This document shows positions 16,518 through 27,353 of a DNA stretch of 32,677 nt, piece after piece. The notes below the pieces were generated by a model that ran no database searches, was not told the origin of the DNA, and saw nothing but the letters and a program-made list of their open reading frames with translations. This stretch comes from Elusimicrobiales bacterium (lineage in GTDB: Bacteria; Elusimicrobiota; Elusimicrobia; Elusimicrobiales; UBA9959). The position numbers and the translations under genes are program-made. How positions within the stretch are numbered: the first letter of the stretch is position 1; every line of letters starts with the position of its first letter. Location of the stretch: the NCBI GenBank assembly GCA_026416895.1, contig JAOAEH010000028.1, positions 1 through 32,677 of the forward strand, in the 5' to 3' direction.

Positions 16518-19307
16518 ATGGATAAGACAGAAAATAAATCTTTTTCTCACACTGTTTTTCTTCCAAAAACATCATTTTCTATGAAGGCAAATCTTGTTCA
16601 AAAGGAACCTCAGATTTTGAAATTTTGGCAAGAAAATTTTATTTATAGTAAAATGCTTAAAAAAAGAGAAAACTCTAAAGTTTTTTATCTTCATGATGGC
16701 CCTCCCTACGCTAACGGACATATTCATATAGGACATGCATTGAATAAAATTCTTAAAGATTTTGTAGTTAAATCTTATTCTATTTTGGGTTATAAAACTC
16801 CTTTTATTCCTGGTTGGGATTGTCATGGATTGCCAATAGAACAACAGCTTTTAAAGGAATTGAAGATATCTAAAAAAAATATTAATGATGTTTCGCTATT
16901 TAGAAAAAAAGCAAAAGATTTTGCTTTAAAATTTATAAATATACAAAGAGAAGAATTTAAAAGACTTGGGGTTTTTGGTGATTGGGATAGTCCATATATT
17001 ACGATGTCAAATCAGTATGAAGCTACAATAGTAAGAGCTTTTTTGGAATTGTTGGAAAAAGGATATATTGAGCGTGATAAAAAAACTATATATTGGTGTC
17101 CAATTTGTGAAACTGCTTTGGCAGATGCTGAAGTGGAGTATAAGGATAAAATTTCCCCATCTATATATGTAAAATTTAAAGTTTTATATTCAAAATTTAA
17201 TATTTCAAATTTATATCTTGTAGTATGGACTACGACGCCTTGGACGTTGCCGTCAAATATAGCAGTTGCTTTAAAAGAAGATGAATTTTATTCAATTATT
17301 AAAGTAGATAGACTATGTGAAGAATATCTTATTATAGCAACAAAATTAATTGAGGATTTTTCAAAAAATATAGATTATAGTTTCAAAGAAATAAAGAGAA
17401 TAAAAGGTTTGGATTTTGCAGATTTAGTATATGAAGCTCCATTAATTGAACTTTTAGATGAGTCACATAAATATCCAAGAAAAGTTATTTTTACCGATTT
17501 TGTAGAAATGTCAAGTGGGACTGGTATAGTTCATATAGCACCAGGTCATGGAGAAGAGGATTATCTCGCTTCTAGAAAGTGGAATCTTGAAGTTTTTTGT
17601 CCAGTTGATGAAGCTGGAAAGTTTACAAATGAAATTAAGGATCTTAACGGTAAATTTGTGTTTGAAGCAAACGAAGTTATTATTGAGATGTTAAAGAAAA
17701 AAAATATACTTATAAACTCATCTTCTATTTCACACAGTTATCCTCATTGTTGGAGGTGTAAGCAACCGATTATATTTAGAGCTACGAAACAATGGTTTCT
17801 AAAAATAGATAAAGGTAATTTGAGGGAAAAGCTTATTCAAGAGTGCAATAAAGTTAATTGGATACCATCTCAAGGATATGAAAGAATTACATCTATGATA
17901 AGAGTAAGGCCTGATTGGTGTTTGTCTAGACAGAGATATTGGGGAACACCTATAATTGCTTTTTGGTGTAGAAGATGTGGAAAACTTTTTGATGATTTTA
18001 AAGTTTTATATGCTATTTCTGATAGGATTGCTAAAGAAGGTAGCGATTTTTGGTTTACGGAAACTTCTTCTCAGATTCTTAAAAATTGTCAATGTGAGTG
18101 TGGAAGTAATGATTTTGAAAAAGAAAAAGATATACTTGATGTATGGTTAGATTCTGGAATATCATGGTATGCTGTTTGTAGGAATGTATCAAATGTCTAT
18201 CCAGTAGATCTTTATTTAGAAGGTTCTGATCAACATAGGGGATGGTTTCAGACCTCTCTCATTCCCTCAGTTGCTTTAAATTCAAAAGCACCATATAGGA
18301 CAGTTCTTACTCATGGTTTTGTCCTTGATGAGGATGGAAGGGCTATGCATAAATCATTGGGGAATGTTGTTTCTCCAAATGAGGTTATATCAAAATATGG
18401 TGCAGAGATACTTAGAATGTGGGTTGCTTTAAGTGATTGGAGAGAAGATGTTAGAATATCTGATTCATTACTTTCTGTTCCTATAGATTTATATAGAAAG
18501 ATAAGGAATACTTTTAGGTATTTAATTGGTAGTCTTTCAGATTTTTCCACATCTAAGAAAATAGAAATAGAAAATATGACAGATATTGATAAGTATATAC
18601 TATCTAGATTAACAGATACTGTTGAAGGTATAAAATTAGATTGGCAAAAATATGATTACAAAACTGCAACAAAGAGAATTGTAGATTTCTGTATAATTGA
18701 TCTTTCTTCTTTTTATCTTGATGTTTTAAAAGATAGACTTTATACTTTTCCCCTTAATTCTAAAGAAAGAAGATCTTCTCAAACAGCAATATATGAGATT
18801 TTGAAAGTTTTAAGTGTAGTTTCTGCTCCTATTATATCTTTTACTTGTGAGGAAGTTTGGCAAGTATTTAGAAATGAGGTTGATCCTTCTTTATCAGAAA
18901 GTGTTTTTCTTAATAATTTAGATGATGTTTATAAACCATATAAAAATGTAGAAATAGTTGAGAAATACAATAATATACTTAAAATAAGAGAAAATATATT
19001 AAAAGAGATTGAACTAGTTAGAAAAAGAGGTGAAATAGGTTCTTCTTTAGAATGCAAGATAGTAATAGAAGCTGATGGTGATTTATATTCCTTTATAAAA
19101 TCAAATATTTCTGAAATAACAATGGCATGCATAGTTTCTCAAATAGAAGTTGTTAAAGGTGATTTTAAGATAATGGTTAGGAAGGCGGACGGTAAAAAAT
19201 GTCCTAGATGTTGGCAATGGAGAACTGATATAGGTAAAGATGAGAATTATCCTCAGTTATGTTTAAAGTGTGCAGATGCTATTAAAGAAAATGCTAAATA
19301 TTTTTAA
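16518..19307 (+). CDS. ileS: Isoleucine--tRNA ligase (type 1, with C-terminal zinc finger)
   Basis: HIGH motif (PYANGHIHIGHAL), KMSKS variant (KSLGN), editing-domain WTTTPWTLP, and C-terminal CPRCWQW...CLKC. Confidence 0.97.
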   Translation: MDKTENKSFSHTVFLPKTSFSMKANLVQKEPQILKFWQENFIYSKMLKKRENSKVFYLHDGPPYANGHIHIGHALNKILKDFVVKSYSILGYKTPFIPGWDCHGLPIEQQLLKELKISKKNINDVSLFRKKAKDFALKFINIQREEFKRLGVFGDWDSPYITMSNQYEATIVRAFLELLEKGYIERDKKTIYWCPICETALADAEVEYKDKISPSIYVKFKVLYSKFNISNLYLVVWTTTPWTLPSNIAVALKEDEFYSIIKVDRLCEEYLIIATKLIEDFSKNIDYSFKEIKRIKGLDFADLVYEAPLIELLDESHKYPRKVIFTDFVEMSSGTGIVHIAPGHGEEDYLASRKWNLEVFCPVDEAGKFTNEIKDLNGKFVFEANEVIIEMLKKKNILINSSSISHSYPHCWRCKQPIIFRATKQWFLKIDKGNLREKLIQECNKVNWIPSQGYERITSMIRVRPDWCLSRQRYWGTPIIAFWCRRCGKLFDDFKVLYAISDRIAKEGSDFWFTETSSQILKNCQCECGSNDFEKEKDILDVWLDSGISWYAVCRNVSNVYPVDLYLEGSDQHRGWFQTSLIPSVALNSKAPYRTVLTHGFVLDEDGRAMHKSLGNVVSPNEVISKYGAEILRMWVALSDWREDVRISDSLLSVPIDLYRKIRNTFRYLIGSLSDFSTSKKIEIENMTDIDKYILSRLTDTVEGIKLDWQKYDYKTATKRIVDFCIIDLSSFYLDVLKDRLYTFPLNSKERRSSQTAIYEILKVLSVVSAPIISFTCEEVWQVFRNEVDPSLSESVFLNNLDDVYKPYKNVEIVEKYNNILKIRENILKEIELVRKRGEIGSSLECKIVIEADGDLYSFIKSNISEITMACIVSQIEVVKGDFKIMVRKADGKKCPRCWQWRTDIGKDENYPQLCLKCADAIKENAKYF

Positions 19308-19764
19308 TGATAGAAGATTATTAGGAACCTTAATTGTTGTGTTTGTCTTTTTAATTGATGTTATCTCGAAAAATTATGTTATTAAAAATCCATCATTGTG
19401 GTTTAAATCATACCTTTGTAATTTTATAAATATTCATATTATTGAAAATACTGGAGTTGCTTTTGGTATGTTTAAGGGGCATAATGATTTTTTTATAGTT
19501 TTTAATAGTATAATTCTTTTGTTTCTTTTTTATTTTAAAAGAAATATAAGATCTAATATTTCTTTTTATGGTATTCATTTTATAATAGGGGGAGCTATAG
19601 GAAACATTTTTGATAGAATAAAATATGGATTTGTTATTGATTTTATAGATTTAAGATTTTTTCCTGCAATTTTTAATTTTGCTGACTTTTTTATTACGGT
19701 AGGTATTTTTATGCTTGTAGTGGATGAGTTTTTTTTAAAAAAGGGAGGTTTAGGTGAAAAATAA
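19291..19764 (+). CDS. lspA: Lipoprotein signal peptidase (signal peptidase II)
   Basis: ENTGVAFGMF, GGAIGNIFDR and FNFADFFI (catalytic Asp motifs). The ileS-lspA synteny is conserved. Start is ATG 19291 or 19270. Both overlap the ileS 3' end. Confidence 0.9.
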   Translation: MLNIFNDRRLLGTLIVVFVFLIDVISKNYVIKNPSLWFKSYLCNFINIHIIENTGVAFGMFKGHNDFFIVFNSIILLFLFYFKRNIRSNISFYGIHFIIGGAIGNIFDRIKYGFVIDFIDLRFFPAIFNFADFFITVGIFMLVVDEFFLKKGGLGEK

Positions 19765-19785
19765 GTTTTTTTATTTATTTTTTTG
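19754..19785 (+). other. Out-of-frame lipoprotein signal-peptide start (GTG, MKNKFF...) separated from the TPR frame by one base, spanning two T7 tracts
   Basis: GGGAGG SD at 19743-19748, then GTG at 19754 encoding MKNKFFYLFF in frame +2. T7 runs lie at 19766-19772 and 19778-19784. One extra T in either run joins it to LLSCSQSTEYY..., the TPR frame. Confidence 0.7.
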
Positions 19786-20679
19786 CTTTCTTGTTCTCAG
19801 TCTACGGAATATTATCTTAAAAGGGGAAATTCATTTTTTATTGCAGGAGATTATTATAAAGCAATTAATATTTATACTACAGCTATATTAAAAGATCCAA
19901 CTTATGCAGATGCTTATTTTTATAGGGCTATGGCTTATGAAAGGATAAGCGATAAAACAAAAGCAATTGACGATTATATAAAGACAATTACATATAACCC
20001 CACCTATATTGCTGCTTATAATAATCTCGCATCTATTTATATAGAGTCTTCTTTATATGATAAAGCTCTCTATTATATAGAAAAGTCTCTTGAAATTAAC
20101 TCGTCTTATAGGTATGCTTATTATAATAGAGGTTTAGTATATTATTTTACTAAAAAATATTTAGATGCTATTAAAGATTTTACAAAAGCAATTGAATTAT
20201 CAGAAAAAAAGATGTATATTGCCTATTATTATAGAGCATTATCGTATTTAAAGCTTTCAATGCCGCTTGAAGCTATAAAGGATATAAACTATCTTATAGA
20301 AAAAGGAAATGAAAGTGATGTAATTTATTACACATTGGCAAAAATATTTTATAATACTAATAACTTTAATTCTGCAATAGAGAATATAAATAAAGCTATA
20401 AATATAAAAGAGGATGCTAATTATTATTATCTCAGAGCTAAAATAAATGAAAAGCTTAATGAAATTATTCAAGCGATTGATGATATAAATAAAGCAATAA
20501 AACTTTCAAATTTTTCAAGGGTTAATTACTTTTATTATGCTGCTGATTTATATCTAAAATTAAAAGAATATGCTAATGCTAAAAGATATTGTGATATGGC
20601 TTTAGAAATTGAACCTTCTTCTAAAGGGGAATATGAAATAAGAATTTCAGCTATTAAAAGCAAAACCAAAGTTAAATAA
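19783..20679 (+). CDS. TPR-repeat protein, probably a lipoprotein (N-terminus disrupted or recoded)
   Basis: About 8 TPR units (for example AYFYRAMAYERISDKTKAIDDYIKTITYNP). As sequenced, the ORF can only start at TTG 19783, immediately before the lipobox-like LSC. See the frameshift finding. Confidence 0.85.
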   Translation: MLSCSQSTEYYLKRGNSFFIAGDYYKAINIYTTAILKDPTYADAYFYRAMAYERISDKTKAIDDYIKTITYNPTYIAAYNNLASIYIESSLYDKALYYIEKSLEINSSYRYAYYNRGLVYYFTKKYLDAIKDFTKAIELSEKKMYIAYYYRALSYLKLSMPLEAIKDINYLIEKGNESDVIYYTLAKIFYNTNNFNSAIENINKAINIKEDANYYYLRAKINEKLNEIIQAIDDINKAIKLSNFSRVNYFYYAADLYLKLKEYANAKRYCDMALEIEPSSKGEYEIRISAIKSKTKVK

Positions 20680-20681
20680 AA

Positions 20682-22685
20682 ATGAGTTTAAAAGAAAAAA
20701 TTTTTTCGACAAGAATTGCTATTGAAAAAATTCTGTTTGAAAAAGAAGTAATTTCAGAAAGAAAACTTCAAAAAAAATATTATTATTATCTTTTTTTTGT
20801 TTTTTTTGTTTATTTTTTTGTAAATCTTTTGTATTTTTATTTCAATAGTAACATAATTAGTTATAAGATTTCAAATTTTAACTTTTCTAAGCTTACTTTA
20901 AGTGAGATTTTATTTCATAGTGATTATTTTACTTCTTCTTTTGAAATGCCTTTTTATGCTTTAGTTTTAAAATTAGTTTCTTTAGTGTTTAAACTAAATA
21001 GCTGGACTATTTTTATAATAAATATTTTTGCAAGCATGTTTGGTCTTTTAGGATATTATTTACTTATAGCAAAAACAAGAAATGAGCAGGCAGGATTGAT
21101 TGGTGTTATTGCACTTATTTCTACTCCTTTTTTTATTAATCTTACAAGACAACTATCAAGTAATATATTTTCTTTTGTCTTTTTAGTTTGGAGTTATTAT
21201 TATTATGTTCGTATTAAAACTCAAGTTCAACATAATTCTATTCCATATTTTGTTATTTTTTATTCTCTTGGTTTATTGTCAGATAAGTTTTTTATTTTAT
21301 ATACTCTTCCTTCTTTTTCGTTTATAAGTTTTTTGTTTAATACTGTATATTCAAGCTATATACTTTTAATATTTATTCCTTCTTTTATTATTTCGATTAT
21401 TTTTTATATTAGATTCTTAATTTTGTTTTTAATTAAATATTCTTTTAGTACTGATTTTGTATTAAGATATTTTAATTTTAAAGAGATTTTTCATTTGTAT
21501 TTTAATTATTTTGGTTTGATCCCATTTTTTATTATTTTTCCTTTTTTTATATGGATGATTTTTTCTGTATATAATCCATATATTTGTAAAAAGGAAATAT
21601 TTAAATGGTTTTTTTATCCTCTATTAATTTTTTTTATTGTTTCAATATCTCCTGAAGTTATTGGTTTTACAATTCCAGCAATAGTAATTGGTTTTTCCGT
21701 TATGAGTTTTAGTGCTATAAGAAAGAAATTAGGTTACTTTTTCATGATTTTATTTATTTTGTCTTTTATAAAGGCTTCGCCTTTAGATATTAGAGGATAT
21801 AAATTGTGGGGTGTGATTGATGGTTTTGATGAACATAAAATAGTTAGGCATATTATGTATGCTATTTCTAATGAAGATAATTTAAAAAAAGGTGAAGTTT
21901 ATGTAGCAGTAAAGTTTCATAAAAAAAATATAAATTCTCATTCTTTTGAAGCTTTAAAAGAAAAATATATGCTTAAAAATTTGAAATTTAGAGATTTTGC
22001 TGAAGAGTTTTTGCCTTTTTCATGTTATTTAATTACTGATAAAAAAACAGATGGACTTGAAAGTTTTAATGAAGTTTTTTTTTATAAGGGAGTTTATTTA
22101 CTGAAAAATCCTTTTTGTTTTTATAAGTTTAGTGGGGAATCTTATTTTATACCAAAGATTAAAATTTCGAATATGGAAATTTCTGATATAAATTTTAAAG
22201 TTATTAATAATTTTTCTACAGATGGTGTTAAAGATTTATATGTTGATATTGGTTATTTGGGATATAATGGGATTGATTTTTATGGTATTAAAGGTATATT
22301 TAAAGATGCTATTGTTAATAGCGATAATAAATATTTTATTTCTAATTTTTCAACTTTTGAAATAAAAAGTGTAATAATAAATCAATATTCAATTGAATCA
22401 GTTTTGGAGTCTAAGAAAAAAACTGATATTGAGGTAGTATTTATGAAAAACATTATTAAATTTTTAAAAAATTTTGGTTTTTTTGATTTCGTTATATCTC
22501 TTTCTCCAGAAATTAAAGATAATACTATTTATTTTAGAGCTCTTAATATAAAAATAGGTGATATCAAGTTGGGGGCTTTTTTTTCTGATTTTTTTGTTTT
22601 TAAATTATCATTTGAAAAACTTAATTTTCCTTTAAAGTTTTCAAAAATTTATATTGGGAATGAACTTATTAAATTATCATCATGA
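20682..22685 (+). CDS. GT-C-fold (ArnT/PMT_2-like) membrane glycosyltransferase-like protein with a ~300-aa C-terminal soluble domain
   Basis: The N-terminal ~360 aa have at least 10 TM helices, and the region FYALVLKLVSLVFKLNSWTIFIINIFASMFGLLGYYLLIAK...ALISTPFF is typical of ArnT/PMT_2-like proteins. I do not recognise the C-terminal half. The family call is from pattern only. Confidence 0.55.
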   Translation: MSLKEKIFSTRIAIEKILFEKEVISERKLQKKYYYYLFFVFFVYFFVNLLYFYFNSNIISYKISNFNFSKLTLSEILFHSDYFTSSFEMPFYALVLKLVSLVFKLNSWTIFIINIFASMFGLLGYYLLIAKTRNEQAGLIGVIALISTPFFINLTRQLSSNIFSFVFLVWSYYYYVRIKTQVQHNSIPYFVIFYSLGLLSDKFFILYTLPSFSFISFLFNTVYSSYILLIFIPSFIISIIFYIRFLILFLIKYSFSTDFVLRYFNFKEIFHLYFNYFGLIPFFIIFPFFIWMIFSVYNPYICKKEIFKWFFYPLLIFFIVSISPEVIGFTIPAIVIGFSVMSFSAIRKKLGYFFMILFILSFIKASPLDIRGYKLWGVIDGFDEHKIVRHIMYAISNEDNLKKGEVYVAVKFHKKNINSHSFEALKEKYMLKNLKFRDFAEEFLPFSCYLITDKKTDGLESFNEVFFYKGVYLLKNPFCFYKFSGESYFIPKIKISNMEISDINFKVINNFSTDGVKDLYVDIGYLGYNGIDFYGIKGIFKDAIVNSDNKYFISNFSTFEIKSVIINQYSIESVLESKKKTDIEVVFMKNIIKFLKNFGFFDFVISLSPEIKDNTIYFRALNIKIGDIKLGAFFSDFFVFKLSFEKLNFPLKFSKIYIGNELIKLSS

Positions 22686-22933
22686 AAATTTTTTATGGGT
22701 TTTATTTATTTATTTGTAATTTTTATGAAATAAAAAATTATAGCCGAAACATTTATTTTACTGAGTATAAGCATAGTTATTGTTCATTACATTTTTGTTT
22801 TTATTCTAATGAAACTATTCCTTTAAGAAAATTTACAGGTAAGGCAGAAGAAATTTGTTATTACTTTGTTTCAAATTATAAATTTTCTCTATTAAACTAT
22901 CCATATATAGGAAATAATTCTAATTATGTTTAA
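22682..22933 (+). CDS. Small Tyr/Phe/Cys-rich hypothetical protein (83 aa)
   Basis: ATGA overlap with the upstream gene. An 83-codon stop-free frame is unlikely by chance at this AT content. It contains HSYCSLHFC (H-x2-C-x2-H-x-C). No recognisable family. Confidence 0.45.
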   Translation: MKIFYGFYLFICNFYEIKNYSRNIYFTEYKHSYCSLHFCFYSNETIPLRKFTGKAEEICYYFVSNYKFSLLNYPYIGNNSNYV

Positions 22934-23111
22934 TTTAAGTTCTGAGATGATTTTAGGTAATAATCTGTCGTACCTAGATAATCTTGTTTTATTAGTTTAT
23001 TTTATTATAGCTTATGAGAGTTTTTCACTTTTTGTTAGAGATTTGTTTAAAACTGGTGAACTTAAATTATCTTCATTAAATTATTTGGAAGGGATGTTTT
23101 TTAAAATGTGA
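22926..23111 (+). CDS. Small hypothetical protein with one hydrophobic helix (61 aa)
   Basis: The ATG overlaps the upstream stop by 8 nt. There is a central hydrophobic stretch, LVLLVYFIIAY. No recognisable family. Confidence 0.4.
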   Translation: MFNLSSEMILGNNLSYLDNLVLLVYFIIAYESFSLFVRDLFKTGELKLSSLNYLEGMFFKM

Positions 23112-23126
23112 AAAGTTGTTAAAATA

Positions 23127-24896
23127 ATGGCAATATATAAACTTTTGATATCCCTTGATGAGAGTTATAATAATAAAGTTTATAATTCTATCTATGAGAA
23201 TGTAAGAAAAATGGGAGGGGTAATATCCATAGAGGTTTTTAATTTAAGTGGGGTTATAAAAGTAATTTATGATAATACAGCTGTTACTTATGAAAAGATT
23301 ATTTCAAGAATATTAAGTTTTAATGTTAAAATAGAGAATTATTATATAGAAAACGAACAACATTTTAAACATAGTTATAAATATAATTCATTAGGCTTTA
23401 ATAAGTTAATTTTTTTGATATTGTTTTTTTTGGTTTTTTATTATTCAGATAAATTTTCAACTAATAAATATTTATCTTTTATTATTTATTTTTTTCTTAT
23501 AAGTTGGGTAAGTTATGACTTTATTTTGATAGGGAAACAAGATAAAAGATATACAAAGTTATATTATATTACTGTTTTGTATTTTTTTTCACTTTTTTTA
23601 TATAAATTGATAATCATTTTATTTCCAAATTTGTCTCTTGATGATTTTATAAGTTGGCACATAATAGCTTTCTTTTTATTGATTATAAGTATTGGTTTTC
23701 ACCTTTTTCATTATCTTTTAGCTAAAAATGAAGCTTATCTTGAAAATGTTAGAAGATTTATGCCATCGTTTGTTAATGTAGTAAAGAAAGATAGAATAGA
23801 AAAGGTAAGCATTGATGATTTAATTGAAGATGATATTGTTATATTTAAAAAAGGAGATTTCGTATGTTTGGATTCTTTTGTTGTTTCTGGTAAAGCTTTT
23901 GTTGATGAATCTTTAATTAACGGAAAATTTGGTTTGGTAGAAAAGAAGGAGGGAAGTGATGTTTTATCTGGTTCTTTTGTAATTGATGGAGAAATACAAG
24001 TTAAAGTATTGAAAAGGCCTAAGTTTTCAAATTTTTTTAATATTTTATCTTCTTTGTCAAAGTATTATCAAAAAGGAGTAGATTTTATCTATATTCCTAT
24101 TATTATATTTAGAAAGTATTTGGTTTATATTCCATTTGTAATTTTTTTAATTGTTTTTTTATCTATTAAAAAGTATATAAGTTTTAATGTAATAGAATCG
24201 TTTTTTATTTCCTTTTTCATTGTTTATCCATCTTTGATATGGTTAATTTTTCCTATTTTGTATATGTTTTGCTCTATTTCTAGTGTAAAGAAGGGATTTT
24301 ATATAAGAAATATTAATTCAGTAATACCTATTATTTTTTCAAATACAATTGTTTTTTTCAGTAATAAAAGAATAGATTTACAAACTATTAGAAAACTTAA
24401 AGAAAATGGTTTTGAAACGGTTTTAATTTCAAGTTTTAAAGATAATAAAGAATCTAATTTTGATATTAGTTATTATGAAATTCCATGTGTACAAAAAGAA
24501 GGATTTATAATTAAAATGAAAATGAAAGGAAAAAAAATAATTTCTGTAGGTTATTCTGTTGAAGATCTAGTCGCATTATCAGCTTCTGATGTGTCTGTTA
24601 TTACAGCTTTTCATCCACAGTTATATTCTTTTAATTGTGATGTTGTTCTTTTAAGGGATGAGCCTAATATTATTGTTGACTTAAAAAAATATTCTAGTTT
24701 TATATATAACATAATAAAACAGAACTCTTATTTAGTAATTTTATTTAATTTTTTAATACTCCCTTCTATTCTGGTATTAATTAACATGAATGGTATTTTT
24801 TTACCTATTGATAATTTAGTTTTTTATTTAACAATGTTTATATTTTTTATAATTGTTATAAATTCTGTAAGAATATATTTGTTTTTTAAAAATTAG
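23127..24896 (+). CDS. Degenerate P1B-type (heavy-metal) ATPase homologue lacking catalytic motifs and the N-domain
   Basis: HMA-like N-terminal fold without CxxC. Actuator-domain match (GDFVCLDSFVVSGKAFVDESLINGKFGLVEKKEGSDVLSGSFVIDGEIQVKV). TM6 reads YPSLIWLIFP where CPCALGLATP is expected, and TIVFFSNKR where vvFDKTGT is expected. This runs directly into the second half of the P-domain (LKENGFETVLISS, VGYSVEDLVALSASDVSV, DVVLLRD) and two C-terminal TM helices. Confidence 0.7.
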   Translation: MAIYKLLISLDESYNNKVYNSIYENVRKMGGVISIEVFNLSGVIKVIYDNTAVTYEKIISRILSFNVKIENYYIENEQHFKHSYKYNSLGFNKLIFLILFFLVFYYSDKFSTNKYLSFIIYFFLISWVSYDFILIGKQDKRYTKLYYITVLYFFSLFLYKLIIILFPNLSLDDFISWHIIAFFLLIISIGFHLFHYLLAKNEAYLENVRRFMPSFVNVVKKDRIEKVSIDDLIEDDIVIFKKGDFVCLDSFVVSGKAFVDESLINGKFGLVEKKEGSDVLSGSFVIDGEIQVKVLKRPKFSNFFNILSSLSKYYQKGVDFIYIPIIIFRKYLVYIPFVIFLIVFLSIKKYISFNVIESFFISFFIVYPSLIWLIFPILYMFCSISSVKKGFYIRNINSVIPIIFSNTIVFFSNKRIDLQTIRKLKENGFETVLISSFKDNKESNFDISYYEIPCVQKEGFIIKMKMKGKKIISVGYSVEDLVALSASDVSVITAFHPQLYSFNCDVVLLRDEPNIIVDLKKYSSFIYNIIKQNSYLVILFNFLILPSILVLINMNGIFLPIDNLVFYLTMFIFFIIVINSVRIYLFFKN

Positions 24897-25377
24897 TTTT
24901 GATCATACATTTAAATCTTTTAATAGTGTGATGTATTGCTATTATAAAAAAAATTGTTGATGATTGGATATGCAATGAATAAAGTGTTTGTCTGTGACTG
25001 TCAAGTATTGAAAAGTAGAGAAAAAAACCACTTAAAGAGGATATTATTGTAGAGATAAGAAGTATCCAATTTAAAATTAATCTGATATTTTTAATTCTCT
25101 TATTTAAAAATTCAGCAAGTATAATTATAATGATACTTATAATAATAACTTGAGGTAAAGCATGTCTAAAAATCTTTTTATCTTTTATTTTTTTATAATT
25201 TATATCTTCTCTTTCATTTTTTTCTTCATTATATTTTTCCCAAATATCACATATTCCATTGGTGTTGTTATCAATAAAGCTTTGACATATTCCATAACAT
25301 GGGGTAGAATATGAAATTCCAACACATTCGGTTTGAGCAGATATTAAGGATGTTATAACTGTAAGTATCAAAATCAT
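24886..25377 (-). CDS. Secreted-Cys-motif / DUF4405-like small membrane protein
   Basis: Signal peptide, then a 4-Cys segment (ECVGISYSTPCYGICQSFIDNNTNGICD), then 3 TM helices with conserved-looking His residues (LHIQSS...AIHH), as in DUF4405. ATGA-coupled to the hydrolase gene. Confidence 0.55.
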   Translation of the reverse strand: MILILTVITSLISAQTECVGISYSTPCYGICQSFIDNNTNGICDIWEKYNEEKNEREDINYKKIKDKKIFRHALPQVIIISIIIIILAEFLNKRIKNIRLILNWILLISTIISSLSGFFLYFSILDSHRQTLYSLHIQSSTIFFIIAIHHTIKRFKCMIKTNF

Positions 25378-26225
25378 TTATTACTCCTTATAAATTCATT
25401 CACTATTTTTTTATATTTTTTATTAATAAGAGTTTCTCCATGAGTTAATTCTTCCATAAGTTCAACTTTTAATAGAGGATTGATTTTAGAATAGTCTCTA
25501 GTTTTTGAATTATAACATAGATTATCTTTAGTTCCACATATAAATAAAGTTGGGGATTTGATATCTTGTATTGACTTGTTTATATTAAATTTGTCTATTT
25601 TTTCTCCACAAAATATCTTATATTTTATTCCCATAAAATAAATTATAGGATATTTCATAATGTGATAATTTTTTAGTATGTTTAACATTGTGGATTTTAT
25701 GCTTATAAAAGGAGAATCAGATATTACAAATTTTAAATTTTCAATTTCAGAAGCAGCTCTTAAAGCTAAAAAAGCACCATAAGAATAACCAAAAAGAGCT
25801 ATATCTAAAAAACCTTTTTCATTTAAAAAGTTTATCCATTTTTTTATATCTTCTATTTCATATTTCGATCCACATACATATCCTTGACTTTCTCCAAGGC
25901 CTCTTATATCTATATACAAAAGTGTAGCAAATTCATGCAAAAAATAAGTAAATGGAAGAATATCGGATTTGTCTGCAGGCCAACCATGCATTAATATTAT
26001 TGCAAGTTTTTCTTTTTTATTTTCAATTAACCACCCTTTTAAGATATGATTTTTTGAACTTATACTTACTTTTTGCCATTTAAGATTAAATTCTGAAGGA
26101 TTTGTTTGTTCTTTTAATCTTTTTGGTTTGGAATATAAAAAAAATATAAATGAAGATAAAACAAATGTTATTATTGTAAAGTATAATAGAAATTTTATAA
26201 TAATTTTTGTAAACAGATTTTTCAT
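25374..26225 (-). CDS. Membrane-anchored alpha/beta-fold hydrolase
   Basis: N-terminal TM helix, HGWP oxyanion region, nucleophile elbow GYSYG, later DSPF and THGE (candidate Asp and His). Confidence 0.8.
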   Translation of the reverse strand: MKNLFTKIIIKFLLYFTIITFVLSSFIFFLYSKPKRLKEQTNPSEFNLKWQKVSISSKNHILKGWLIENKKEKLAIILMHGWPADKSDILPFTYFLHEFATLLYIDIRGLGESQGYVCGSKYEIEDIKKWINFLNEKGFLDIALFGYSYGAFLALRAASEIENLKFVISDSPFISIKSTMLNILKNYHIMKYPIIYFMGIKYKIFCGEKIDKFNINKSIQDIKSPTLFICGTKDNLCYNSKTRDYSKINPLLKVELMEELTHGETLINKKYKKIVNEFIRSNK

Positions 26226-26300
26226 ATTAATTAATTATACAAAAAGGTATTTTTTACTAACAAAGTTTTTTTATTATTACAAATTCTGTAAAATATACTT

Positions 26301-27353
26301 GTGAATATAAATAAAGATGATATTTCAAGAGTTTCTCGAAATTTTTTGGTTGTAGAACCAAAAAATATTGAAATAGTATATATGGATAATTTTGAAAAAG
26401 GAAATAGACTTGATATGTTTAGGGCTATTAATGTGGGCAAAAAGTCAGAAATTAGGTTTAAGATACTTTCAGATTTTTATTTTAATCAATTTATATTATC
26501 TGTGTCTCCGTATATGAATGATTCAAATACTATGTCTGTTTTTTGTGATTTTAATAGCAAAAGATATTATTTAGGAAATTTTTCTGTGTCAAGTTCTAAG
26601 AGTTTTCCTCTACAAGATGAAGAAGTTAAAGTTGATATTGATGTTTTATGTTTTAAAAATAGAATTTCTAGTTTAGATGCTGGTATAATTTTCTGGGGAA
26701 ATGGAAAGAAAGGTATAAAGCTTGTTAATTTAATTATGACTGATACAGATAAAAGATTTTTTTATGAAAATTTTTTTCCAAAAAAATATGTAAATATTGA
26801 TATTCCTAAAATTTCACAAATTAGTCAAGGAGTTGAATATAACACAAGAATATGTAGTCCTACATGTATTTCAATGGTTTTAAAATATTATAATTTTAAT
26901 ATAGATCCGGTTTGTATTTCAAAAAATGTCTATGATAATTCTTCTCATATATATGGAAACTGGTTTTTTAACACTGCCTATGTTTCATATCTTGGTTTTT
27001 ATTCATTTGTAGCAAGAATAAATTCTTATAGTTTTCTCTATAAAATTTTAAGCAAAGAAATACCTGTAATAGCAACTATTTCTTTTGACGAAGGAGAACT
27101 TAAAAATTCTCCATTACAAAGAACTAAAGGGCATTTAGTAGTTATAAAAGGAATGACAGAGAAGGGAGATATAATAGTTAATGATCCTGCAGCATCGAGT
27201 GAAAAAGAGGTTGAAAGAATTTATGATTCTTATGAATTTTTTAGGAGTTGGATAGTTAATAAGTATGGTACTTCTTATTTCATTTTAGATGATAAAAAGA
27301 TAGAAGATGTTATAAAGATTTTTGAAGAAGATAATGAGGTGAGATATGAATAG
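26301..27353 (+). CDS. Peptidase C39-like (C39_2-type) cysteine peptidase domain protein with an unknown N-terminal domain
   Basis: C-terminal half: NTRICSPTCISMVLKYYNF (catalytic Cys context) and KGHLVVIKGMTEKGDIIVNDP (His context). The GTG start at 26301 is uncertain. The next in-frame ATG is at 26382. Confidence 0.7.
   Translation: MNINKDDISRVSRNFLVVEPKNIEIVYMDNFEKGNRLDMFRAINVGKKSEIRFKILSDFYFNQFILSVSPYMNDSNTMSVFCDFNSKRYYLGNFSVSSSKSFPLQDEEVKVDIDVLCFKNRISSLDAGIIFWGNGKKGIKLVNLIMTDTDKRFFYENFFPKKYVNIDIPKISQISQGVEYNTRICSPTCISMVLKYYNFNIDPVCISKNVYDNSSHIYGNWFFNTAYVSYLGFYSFVARINSYSFLYKILSKEIPVIATISFDEGELKNSPLQRTKGHLVVIKGMTEKGDIIVNDPAASSEKEVERIYDSYEFFRSWIVNKYGTSYFILDDKKIEDVIKIFEEDNEVRYE

Follow-up and report, generated by a model that had tools for sequence, protein, structure and literature searches.

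P-type ATPases, which rank with the best understood of membrane enzymes, are defined by a phosphorylated aspartate and by the cycle of their actuator (A), phosphorylation (P), and nucleotide-binding (N) domains. Here we describe a gene at positions 23127–24896 of a 32,677-nucleotide stretch of Elusimicrobiales DNA (contig JAOAEH010000028.1 of assembly GCA_026416895.1; hereafter, the window), whose product shares its fold with the CopA-type P1B-1 Cu(I)-ATPases and finds in them (LpCopA, 3rfu/4bbj; A. fulgidus CopA, 3j08/7r0g; human ATP7B) its best sequence and structure matches. The domain order is that of CopA (HMA, MA-MB, M1-M2, A-domain, M3-M4, P-domain, M5-M6), and in related Elusimicrobia the corresponding genomic position holds canonical CopA-type members. 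Unlike CopA, the window protein is without the N-domain, the Asp of DKTGT, TGE, the CPC/YN/MxxSS ligands, and CxxC, and is predicted to be unable to run the Post-Albers cycle; judged by its sequence, it is a pseudoenzyme derived from a P1B pump. We are highly confident that the gene is a selected, catalytically dead ortholog of a P1B pump, found in a clade of low-GC Elusimicrobiales.

Retention of a P-type ATPase module after loss of its catalytic residues has been described in alveolates. Among the P4-ATPase–guanylate cyclase chimeras (P4GC; Cryptosporidium, and P4GC-beta of Plasmodium), some lineages have a changed or missing DKTGT Asp and A-domain Glu, and the degenerate flippase module is retained and, where tested, required, which suggests a non-pumping role (PMC13466520). 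P4GC is the nearest described precedent that we found; it is a eukaryotic protein of the P4 subfamily (lipid flippases) that carries a fused cyclase and retains its N-domain (PMC13466520), whereas the window protein is bacterial, P1B-derived, stand-alone, and N-domain-less. The same combination of lost catalytic residues, a conserved fold, and purifying selection is found in pseudoenzymes of the HAD superfamily and elsewhere. The preliminary description of this DNA held that bacterial pseudoenzymes derived from P-type ATPases are essentially undescribed; we likewise found no described bacterial pseudo- or inactive P-type ATPase in the literature searched, which omits much subscription work, and a mention in large superfamily surveys is possible.

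The P1B homology proposed in that description is upheld by profile and structure searches, which agree from the HMA-like domain through the last helix. The Pfam E1-E2_ATPase model (PF00122) matches residues 212–381 (E = 6.1e-20) and is the sole Pfam match of the protein; the Hydrolase (PF00702) and HMA models were undetected at E ≤ 10, and the HMA model matches just one of the seven members of the family described below, weakly (E = 0.018). The NCBIfam model TIGR01525 (heavy-metal P-type ATPase) scores 104 bits, far below its cut-off of 346. A phmmer search of PDB sequences returned CopA chains 3j08, 7r0g, and 3rfu (E ~1e-12) in two stretches, one covering the A-domain and helices and the other the second half of the P-domain and M5-M6, with nothing between them. 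Alignment of the seven-member profile to a canonical pump profile with hhalign gave 100% probability (E = 4.9e-45) over 583 columns; the alignment extends from the HMA-like domain into the final helix, and its single long gap falls at the position of the N-domain. Foldseek, applied to an AlphaFold2 (AF2) model, ranked LpCopA 4bbj best (E = 5e-21) and also recovered ATP7B, AfCopA, and ZntA; its top entries (4bbj, 7si3, 7r0g, 3rfu, and 4umw) have E-values of 1e-21 to 1e-16 and a TM-score of ~0.54. With similarity over the A-domain, P-domain, and helices, an eight-helix topology that includes MA/MB, and a matching fold, the gene is a true CopA-like P1B-type ATPase homolog by descent.

The reading frame is uninterrupted, as the preliminary description had it: the other five frames of the gene contain 30–80 stops each against one in the coding frame, and 1,000 shuffled versions of the gene had longest open stretches of 46 codons on average and of 109 at most. 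The AF2 model (overall predicted local distance difference test score, pLDDT, of 74; predicted TM-score of 0.67) has eight long helices in the expected order and a beta-rich A-domain; its soluble domains reach a pLDDT of 80–93, but its membrane helices just 50–68. Residues 1–76 adopt a beta-alpha-beta-beta-alpha-beta fold (pLDDT 86–92), and the P-domain remnant a Rossmann-like alternation of strands and helices (pLDDT 80–91). The helices of the N-terminal membrane part span residues 89–107, 114–138, 140–165, and 177–210, aligned to 3rfu from residue 116 on.

The motifs at which P1B pumps bind metal, ATP, and phosphate are all replaced, and the coordinates first given for them were all correct when checked by translation and alignment. 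SLDESYNN (residues 9–16) stands in place of GMxCxxC, aligned to GMSCAVC; NGKF (residues 265–268, nt 23919–23930) in place of TGES; YPS (residues 367–369, nt 24225–24233) in place of CPC, with only the Pro kept; and FSNKR (residues 411–415, nt 24357–24371) in place of DKTGT. SSFKD replaces TGD, and G475-YSVE-D480 replaces GDGxND, retaining its first Gly and last Asp. The YN and MxxSS ligands of CopA are mostly lost: YN has become FN in the window, where M5 thus keeps its Asn, and FH or IH in the other six family members, which have His at that position. The GDFVxxD...VDESL segment of the A-domain is conserved across the family, and the hinge (CDVVLLRDE) is retained, as are two helices at the C-terminus. 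The absence of the N-domain was called correctly, but its size was put too high, at ~170 residues; the gap amounts to 122 residues when measured against P0124, the closest canonical ortholog. Similarly, the CPC-bearing helix, first labeled TM6, is indeed the sixth in the chain but is M4 in standard P1B nomenclature.

Thus none of the features that make a functional P1B pump is present: neither the DKTGT Asp, the N-domain, and TGE(S) nor CPx with the M5/M6 ligands and GDGxND/TGD. The N-terminal domain is likewise no HMA domain proper, since its fold is predicted but the GMxCxxC loop is without Cys in every clade member. With the N-domain, the Asp, TGE, most Mg/phosphate residues, CPC/YN/MxxSS, and the HMA cysteines all lost, the protein is predicted to lack the canonical means of binding ATP, forming a phosphoenzyme, and binding Cu(I).

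These losses belong to a family. A word-indexed search found three full-length relatives (57/41/36% identity; 594/590/580 aa) that match PF00122 only, one of them a "hypothetical protein" in an Elusimicrobiales metagenome-assembled genome (MAG); both members with public names (n = 2) are so called. P0121, P0122, and P0123 came from an exhaustive profile search over 1.8 billion representatives, and a scan of GTDB genomes contributed only two more loci, each a close variant of P0004; family peptide patterns searched against JGI metagenome contigs yielded no further loci. The resulting seven representatives of what we call clade A (P0001, P0002, P0003, P0121, P0122, P0123, and P0004) share 31–57% mutual identity, intact frames of 580–598 aa, and one domain order, and the ortholog survey proposed in the preliminary description thus finds the N-domain, Asp, TGE, CPC, and CxxC lost in seven of seven. 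The TGE position reads NGK/KGS/KGK/KDE/KGN/RGE/KNS, and the phosphorylation position FSNK, FYDK, FYDE, FSHN, LSDK, LYCD, and FSSD; Asp is not conserved there. Six members also lack the first Asp of GDGxND, and CPC, which is YPS in the window, is YP[YF] in the others.

The family has at the same time gained motifs of its own. Sixty-three columns are invariant in the seven sequences, and they include motifs foreign to canonical pumps: YP[SYF]xIWxxFP in M4 (Y367, P368, W372, F375, P376, and Y379 invariant in all seven), HPExFSxxCD in the P-remnant/hinge region (HPQLYSFNCD in the window; His and Cys replaced in P0121), and F[HN]xxILP in M5. K457, the Lys of HAD motif III, and D480, the last Asp of motif IV, are also invariant. 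In the HMA-like domain, 14 of 76 columns are invariant across the seven, and a KMGGV...YD.xAVT..KI..RI signature is common to the family and canonical P0124.

We measured selection as the ratio of nonsynonymous to synonymous substitution rates (dN/dS) between the window and its closest ortholog (L001), at an unsaturated dS of 0.71. The ratio is 0.38 for the ATPase-like gene, the highest of the region, and is similar to those of the genes for the PMT_2 protein (0.35) and a C39_2 peptidase (0.32); isoleucyl-tRNA synthetase (IleRS) gives 0.11. Within the gene it rises from 0.17 in the HMA-like domain, where constraint is greatest, through 0.27 in the A-domain and 0.35–0.41 in the P-remnant to 0.42–0.56 in the membrane helices (0.42–0.46 for MA-M2; 0.56 for M5-M6, the least constrained part after the linker) and 0.95 in a 12-codon linker, which is a useful internal control for neutrality. 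Near-identical variants (L004, L005, L010, and L011) give 0.09–0.55, values that are consistent with constraint but have little power alone, each pair resting on 1–11 substitutions. Purifying selection on the gene, as the preliminary description had argued, is real but moderate, and it is strongest on the cytosolic domains. Catalytic residues lost under purifying selection place the protein among the pseudoenzymes.

The genomic setting shows where the gene came from. It is the last gene of a co-directional block, ileS-lspA-TPR-PMT_2-MA_2-ATPase(-like), that occupies 16518–24896 of the window and recurs in the same order in L001–L004, L006, L009, L012, L013/L014, and L016. Elusimicrobia that carry the block range from 25% to 53% GC, and several of its genes overlap one another at start and stop; at the ATPase-like gene, the start abuts or overlaps the lipoprotein stop by 1–4 nt in L001, L002, and L003 and is separated from it by 12 nt in L004. 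This suggests a long-lived operon that joins lipoprotein processing, a GT-C glycosyltransferase, and a metal pump. A canonical pump of 724–734 aa with HMA, E1-E2, and Hydrolase Pfam matches ends the block in L006 (GCA_012517285.1), L012 (GCA_002774685.1), and L016 (GCA_029267355.1), and P0124 and P0128, as read, have CxxC, TGES, CPC, DKTGT, the N-domain, and GDGLND or GDGIND. The dead form ends the block in the window, L001–L004, and L011. Since the same block position holds a canonical pump elsewhere, the window gene is a positional ortholog of that pump, converted in place.

A second group of block-associated proteins, clade B (P0125, P0126, P0127, and P0178; Table 1), occupies middle ground; the genomic position is seen for P0125, P0127, and P0178, and L008 holds the P0126 gene only. 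These proteins have 583–610 aa, an N-domain deletion of 114–117 aa, and no CPC or HMA cysteines, and they keep the phosphorylation Asp (FDKT, FDNS, FDIA, or IDMS), with GDGxND in three of four and TGE in P0126. They are 19–24% identical to the window clade and up to 43% to canonical P0124. As far as the sequences allow a prediction, clade B could still accept a phosphoryl group from a small donor and would be a natural intermediate.

A neighbor-joining tree of concatenated IleRS, LspA, TPR, and PMT_2 sequences places clade B with canonical L006, apart from the window clade, with 88% bootstrap, against 7% for the grouping that a single N-domain loss requires; the tree is small (four genes, eight taxa, 1693 gap-free columns) and distance-based, and compositional bias is possible. 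The deletion junctions of the two clades also differ by ~5–8 residues. A single ancestral deletion common to both is disfavored on these two counts, and because clade B groups with canonical L006 on the neighbor-gene tree, two losses are the likelier history: the N-domain was probably, if provisionally, lost independently in clades A and B.

Taken as a whole, these observations are best explained, probably correctly, by a dead pump ortholog that is kept as a non-pumping, membrane-anchored pseudoenzyme. More tentatively, and short of calling it probable, we propose a scaffold or regulator: most of the selected function would lie on the cytosolic side, in the HMA-like, A, and P-remnant domains, which would serve at the inner membrane as a scaffold for protein binding or as a regulatory subunit, and the helix bundle, now largely hydrophobic and plugged, its former ion site filled by invariant aromatics, would be the anchor. 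Partners may include LspA, the TPR lipoprotein, the GT-C glycosyltransferase, and the MA_2-like lipoprotein, which are suggested by the other block products all being envelope-biogenesis proteins. The conversion of the membrane metal site to invariant aromatics and Pro (YPxxIWxxFP) argues against an open ion path, and since selection is strongest on the cytosolic domains, a role for these is favored over a channel, one of the non-pumping functions first suggested (scaffold, channel, sensor, or regulator).

Several points weigh against this interpretation, apart from the limits of the tree given above. The ATPase-like gene is the fastest-evolving intact gene of the region (identity 58/41/36% vs. 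87/73/65% for IleRS), and its constraint is therefore moderate. The adjoining MA_2-like gene is broken in the window, and its product is therefore no obligatory partner here; in another phylum (L015), an MA_2 homolog adjoins gidB/parA/parB and not an ATPase. The whole region is, moreover, syntenic across these related genomes, which makes gene neighborhood weak evidence of functional coupling.

The protein might instead be a passive conduit that works without ATP as a channel, facilitator, or scramblase; its substrate would be an ion other than Cu(I) or a lipid-linked compound, for example a polyprenyl-phosphate sugar on which the co-linear GT-C (PMT_2) enzyme draws. All eight helices are kept, the gene lies two genes downstream of the PMT_2 glycosyltransferase-like gene, and the new invariant M4 motif, the conserved M5 His/Asn, and N579 in M6 speak against free drift of the bundle. 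The helices are nevertheless the least constrained folded parts of the protein and the HMA-like and A-domains the most, opposite to what a pure conduit predicts; the canonical ligands have given way to bulky hydrophobic or aromatic residues; and canonical pumps share the block in L006, L012, and L016, so membership in it implies no glycosylation role. We regard a conduit as quite unlikely and favor the scaffold or regulator over it. Chance persistence of a decaying pseudogene or functionless relic would suit the rapid evolution of the gene, the visible decay of the lipoprotein gene beside it, and an AT-rich lineage (~25% GC) compatible with reductive evolution, but it is largely refuted by the open frame and constant domain order of seven representatives at 31–57% identity, by the low dN/dS overall and in the HMA-like domain as compared with the linker, by the shortness of open stretches in the shuffled gene, and by 63 invariant columns with new family-specific motifs; it is very improbable.

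Acetyl phosphate and other small donors can phosphorylate P-type ATPases, and this is one point in favor of a working pump with non-canonical residues, a non-ATP phosphoryl donor, or an N-domain supplied in trans. K457 and D480 are invariant, and clade B, with its Asp and, in three of four proteins, GDGxND, might retain such chemistry; the window clade, however, has no conserved Asp at the phosphorylation position or close to it, TGE is gone in all members and the first Asp of GDGxND in six of seven, CPC, YN, MxxSS, and CxxC are lost, and no N-domain-like gene lies in the neighborhood, and we consider a working pump scarcely credible. Even less so is an assembly or sequencing artifact, in which a canonical pump would be disguised by a mis-assembled or chimeric contig: the window is the whole of a 32.7-kb contig of metagenomic type, and the deletion and frameshift in the neighboring gene could in principle be assembly errors, but the same architecture and deletion junction occur in independent assemblies from NCBI, ENA, Logan, and GTDB (L001–L005, L010, and L011), which refutes it, and the motif replacements are point substitutions across the whole protein and not a junction artifact. 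Sequencing error, which the preliminary description had allowed for, therefore cannot be invoked to recover DKTGT or the N-domain.

If the non-pumping pseudoenzyme is the right reading, a fold kept under selection without N-domain, catalytic residues, or metal ligands would mean that the P1B fold can serve a non-pumping role. One locus offers a graded series, from canonical pump through N-domain-less proteins with the Asp to fully dead forms, which would dissect the surfaces used in such a role: the Cys-less HMA-like domain, the A-domain, and the aromatic M4 motif. A bolder and somewhat unlikely extension is that the CopA-like protein of this locus had a second, pump-independent role at the inner membrane, e.g., organizing an LspA/TPR/GT-C/MA_2 envelope module, which selection preserved while the transport machinery was dropped twice, fully in clade A and partly in clade B. 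If true, these would be the first described bacterial pseudoenzymes derived from P-type ATPases and a natural experiment on the pump-independent parts of P1B proteins. There is also a practical consequence: these proteins still match E1-E2_ATPase (P0125 and P0127 also match Hydrolase) and could therefore be mis-annotated on the basis of their domains as metal-efflux pumps, which would overstate the capacity for metal resistance in metagenomic surveys.

Table 1. Coordinates of the ATPase-like gene, its parts, and its neighbors in the window, and of the clade B genes in their own loci.
Feature	Position	Strand	Basis or remark
lspA	19270-19764	+	Pfam
TPR lipoprotein	19783-20679	+	Pfam
PMT_2 GT-C-type glycosyltransferase-like membrane protein	20682-22685	+	Pfam; ~665 aa in block
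Broken Peptidase_MA_2-like lipoprotein remnant	22682..23111	+	Two short open reading frames in different frames; tblastn
Whole pseudo-P1B-ATPase gene	23127..24896	+	589 codons plus stop, ATG start; open reading frame listing, PF00122, hhalign, AF2, Foldseek
HMA-like ferredoxin-fold domain, aa 1-76	23127..23354	+	Without CxxC cysteines; AF2 and alignments
Helices MA, MB, M1, M2 (P1B-specific N-terminal membrane helices), aa 89-210	23391..23756	+	AF2, LpCopA 3rfu alignment
Actuator (A) domain, aa 211-300	23757..24026	+	PF00122 match 212-381; pLDDT 80-93
Helices M3-M4, aa 301-388	24027..24290	+	CPC site replaced; motif table
Remnant P-domain, aa 389-514	24291..24668	+	N-domain deletion junction ~nt 24357-24383; alignments, hhalign, AF2
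Helices M5-M6, aa 515-589	24669..24893	+	AF2 helices 515-554 and 561-588
Membrane protein, 163 aa	24886-25377	-	Signal peptide, weak DUF4405 / cytochrome b561-like C-terminus with conserved His
Alpha/beta hydrolase, 283 aa	25374-26225	-	Downstream, convergent
Clade B P0125	L007 918-2726
Clade B P0126	L008 117-1949
Clade B P0127	L009 6218-8032
Clade B P0178	L013 7062-8813

Around these features, the window has ~25% GC and a GC skew that is positive everywhere but at 25001–26000, and its + strand carries most genes. A scan of 19000–26500 for sigma-70 promoters and terminators gave 67 promoter-like sites vs. 65.7 expected and one terminator-like site vs. 1.2.

The MA_2-like lipoprotein is a second degenerate "enzyme" beside the dead ATPase. 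It is encoded by one gene of 231–233 aa in orthologous loci; the remnant in the window consists of open reading frames of 83 and 61 aa that correspond to residues 1–76 and, by tblastn, ~158–216, with ~80 codons deleted. The HExxH zinc site of the lipoprotein is intact in L006 and L009 and lost in L007 and all of clade A. The idea of an MA_2 peptidase/P1B ATPase metallation pair is weakened by L009, which has an intact HExxH peptidase beside an already degenerate ATPase. MA_2 homologs are few (19 matches), and no MA_2-P1B linkage outside Elusimicrobia was seen at the one distant homolog examined (L015).

Other proteins of related build came to light in the exhaustive profile search: P0168, P0254, and P0129 are P1B ATPases (589–738 aa) from other lineages, without an N-domain but with CPC, DKTGT, TGD, and GDGxND. 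P0221, likewise N-domain-less, has SDRGF at the DKTGT position and TGT at that of TGE, and its CPC is intact. Going by these sequences, N-domain-less P1B-like proteins may be a wider, undescribed phenomenon. Separately, a 2-kb contig (L010, JBAMLT010000260.1) whose product is >90% identical to P0004 is labeled "Caldisericota bacterium" in its MAG record; the near-identical L011 and P0269 are labeled Elusimicrobiales, and the Caldisericota label is probably a binning error.

Downstream of the ATPase-like gene, the convergent pair of a 163-aa membrane protein and an alpha/beta hydrolase is present in all four clade loci that extend past the gene (the window, L001, L002/L003, and L004), whereas L006, L007, L009, L013, and L016 lack it at that position; the pair was therefore gained in the clade with the fully dead ATPase. 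The 3' ends of the 163-aa gene and the ATPase-like gene overlap by 11 nt, and the 163-aa protein has four invariant Cys (C-x8-C-x3-C-x11-C) in the sequence TPCYGxC..FID.N.NGICD.WE.

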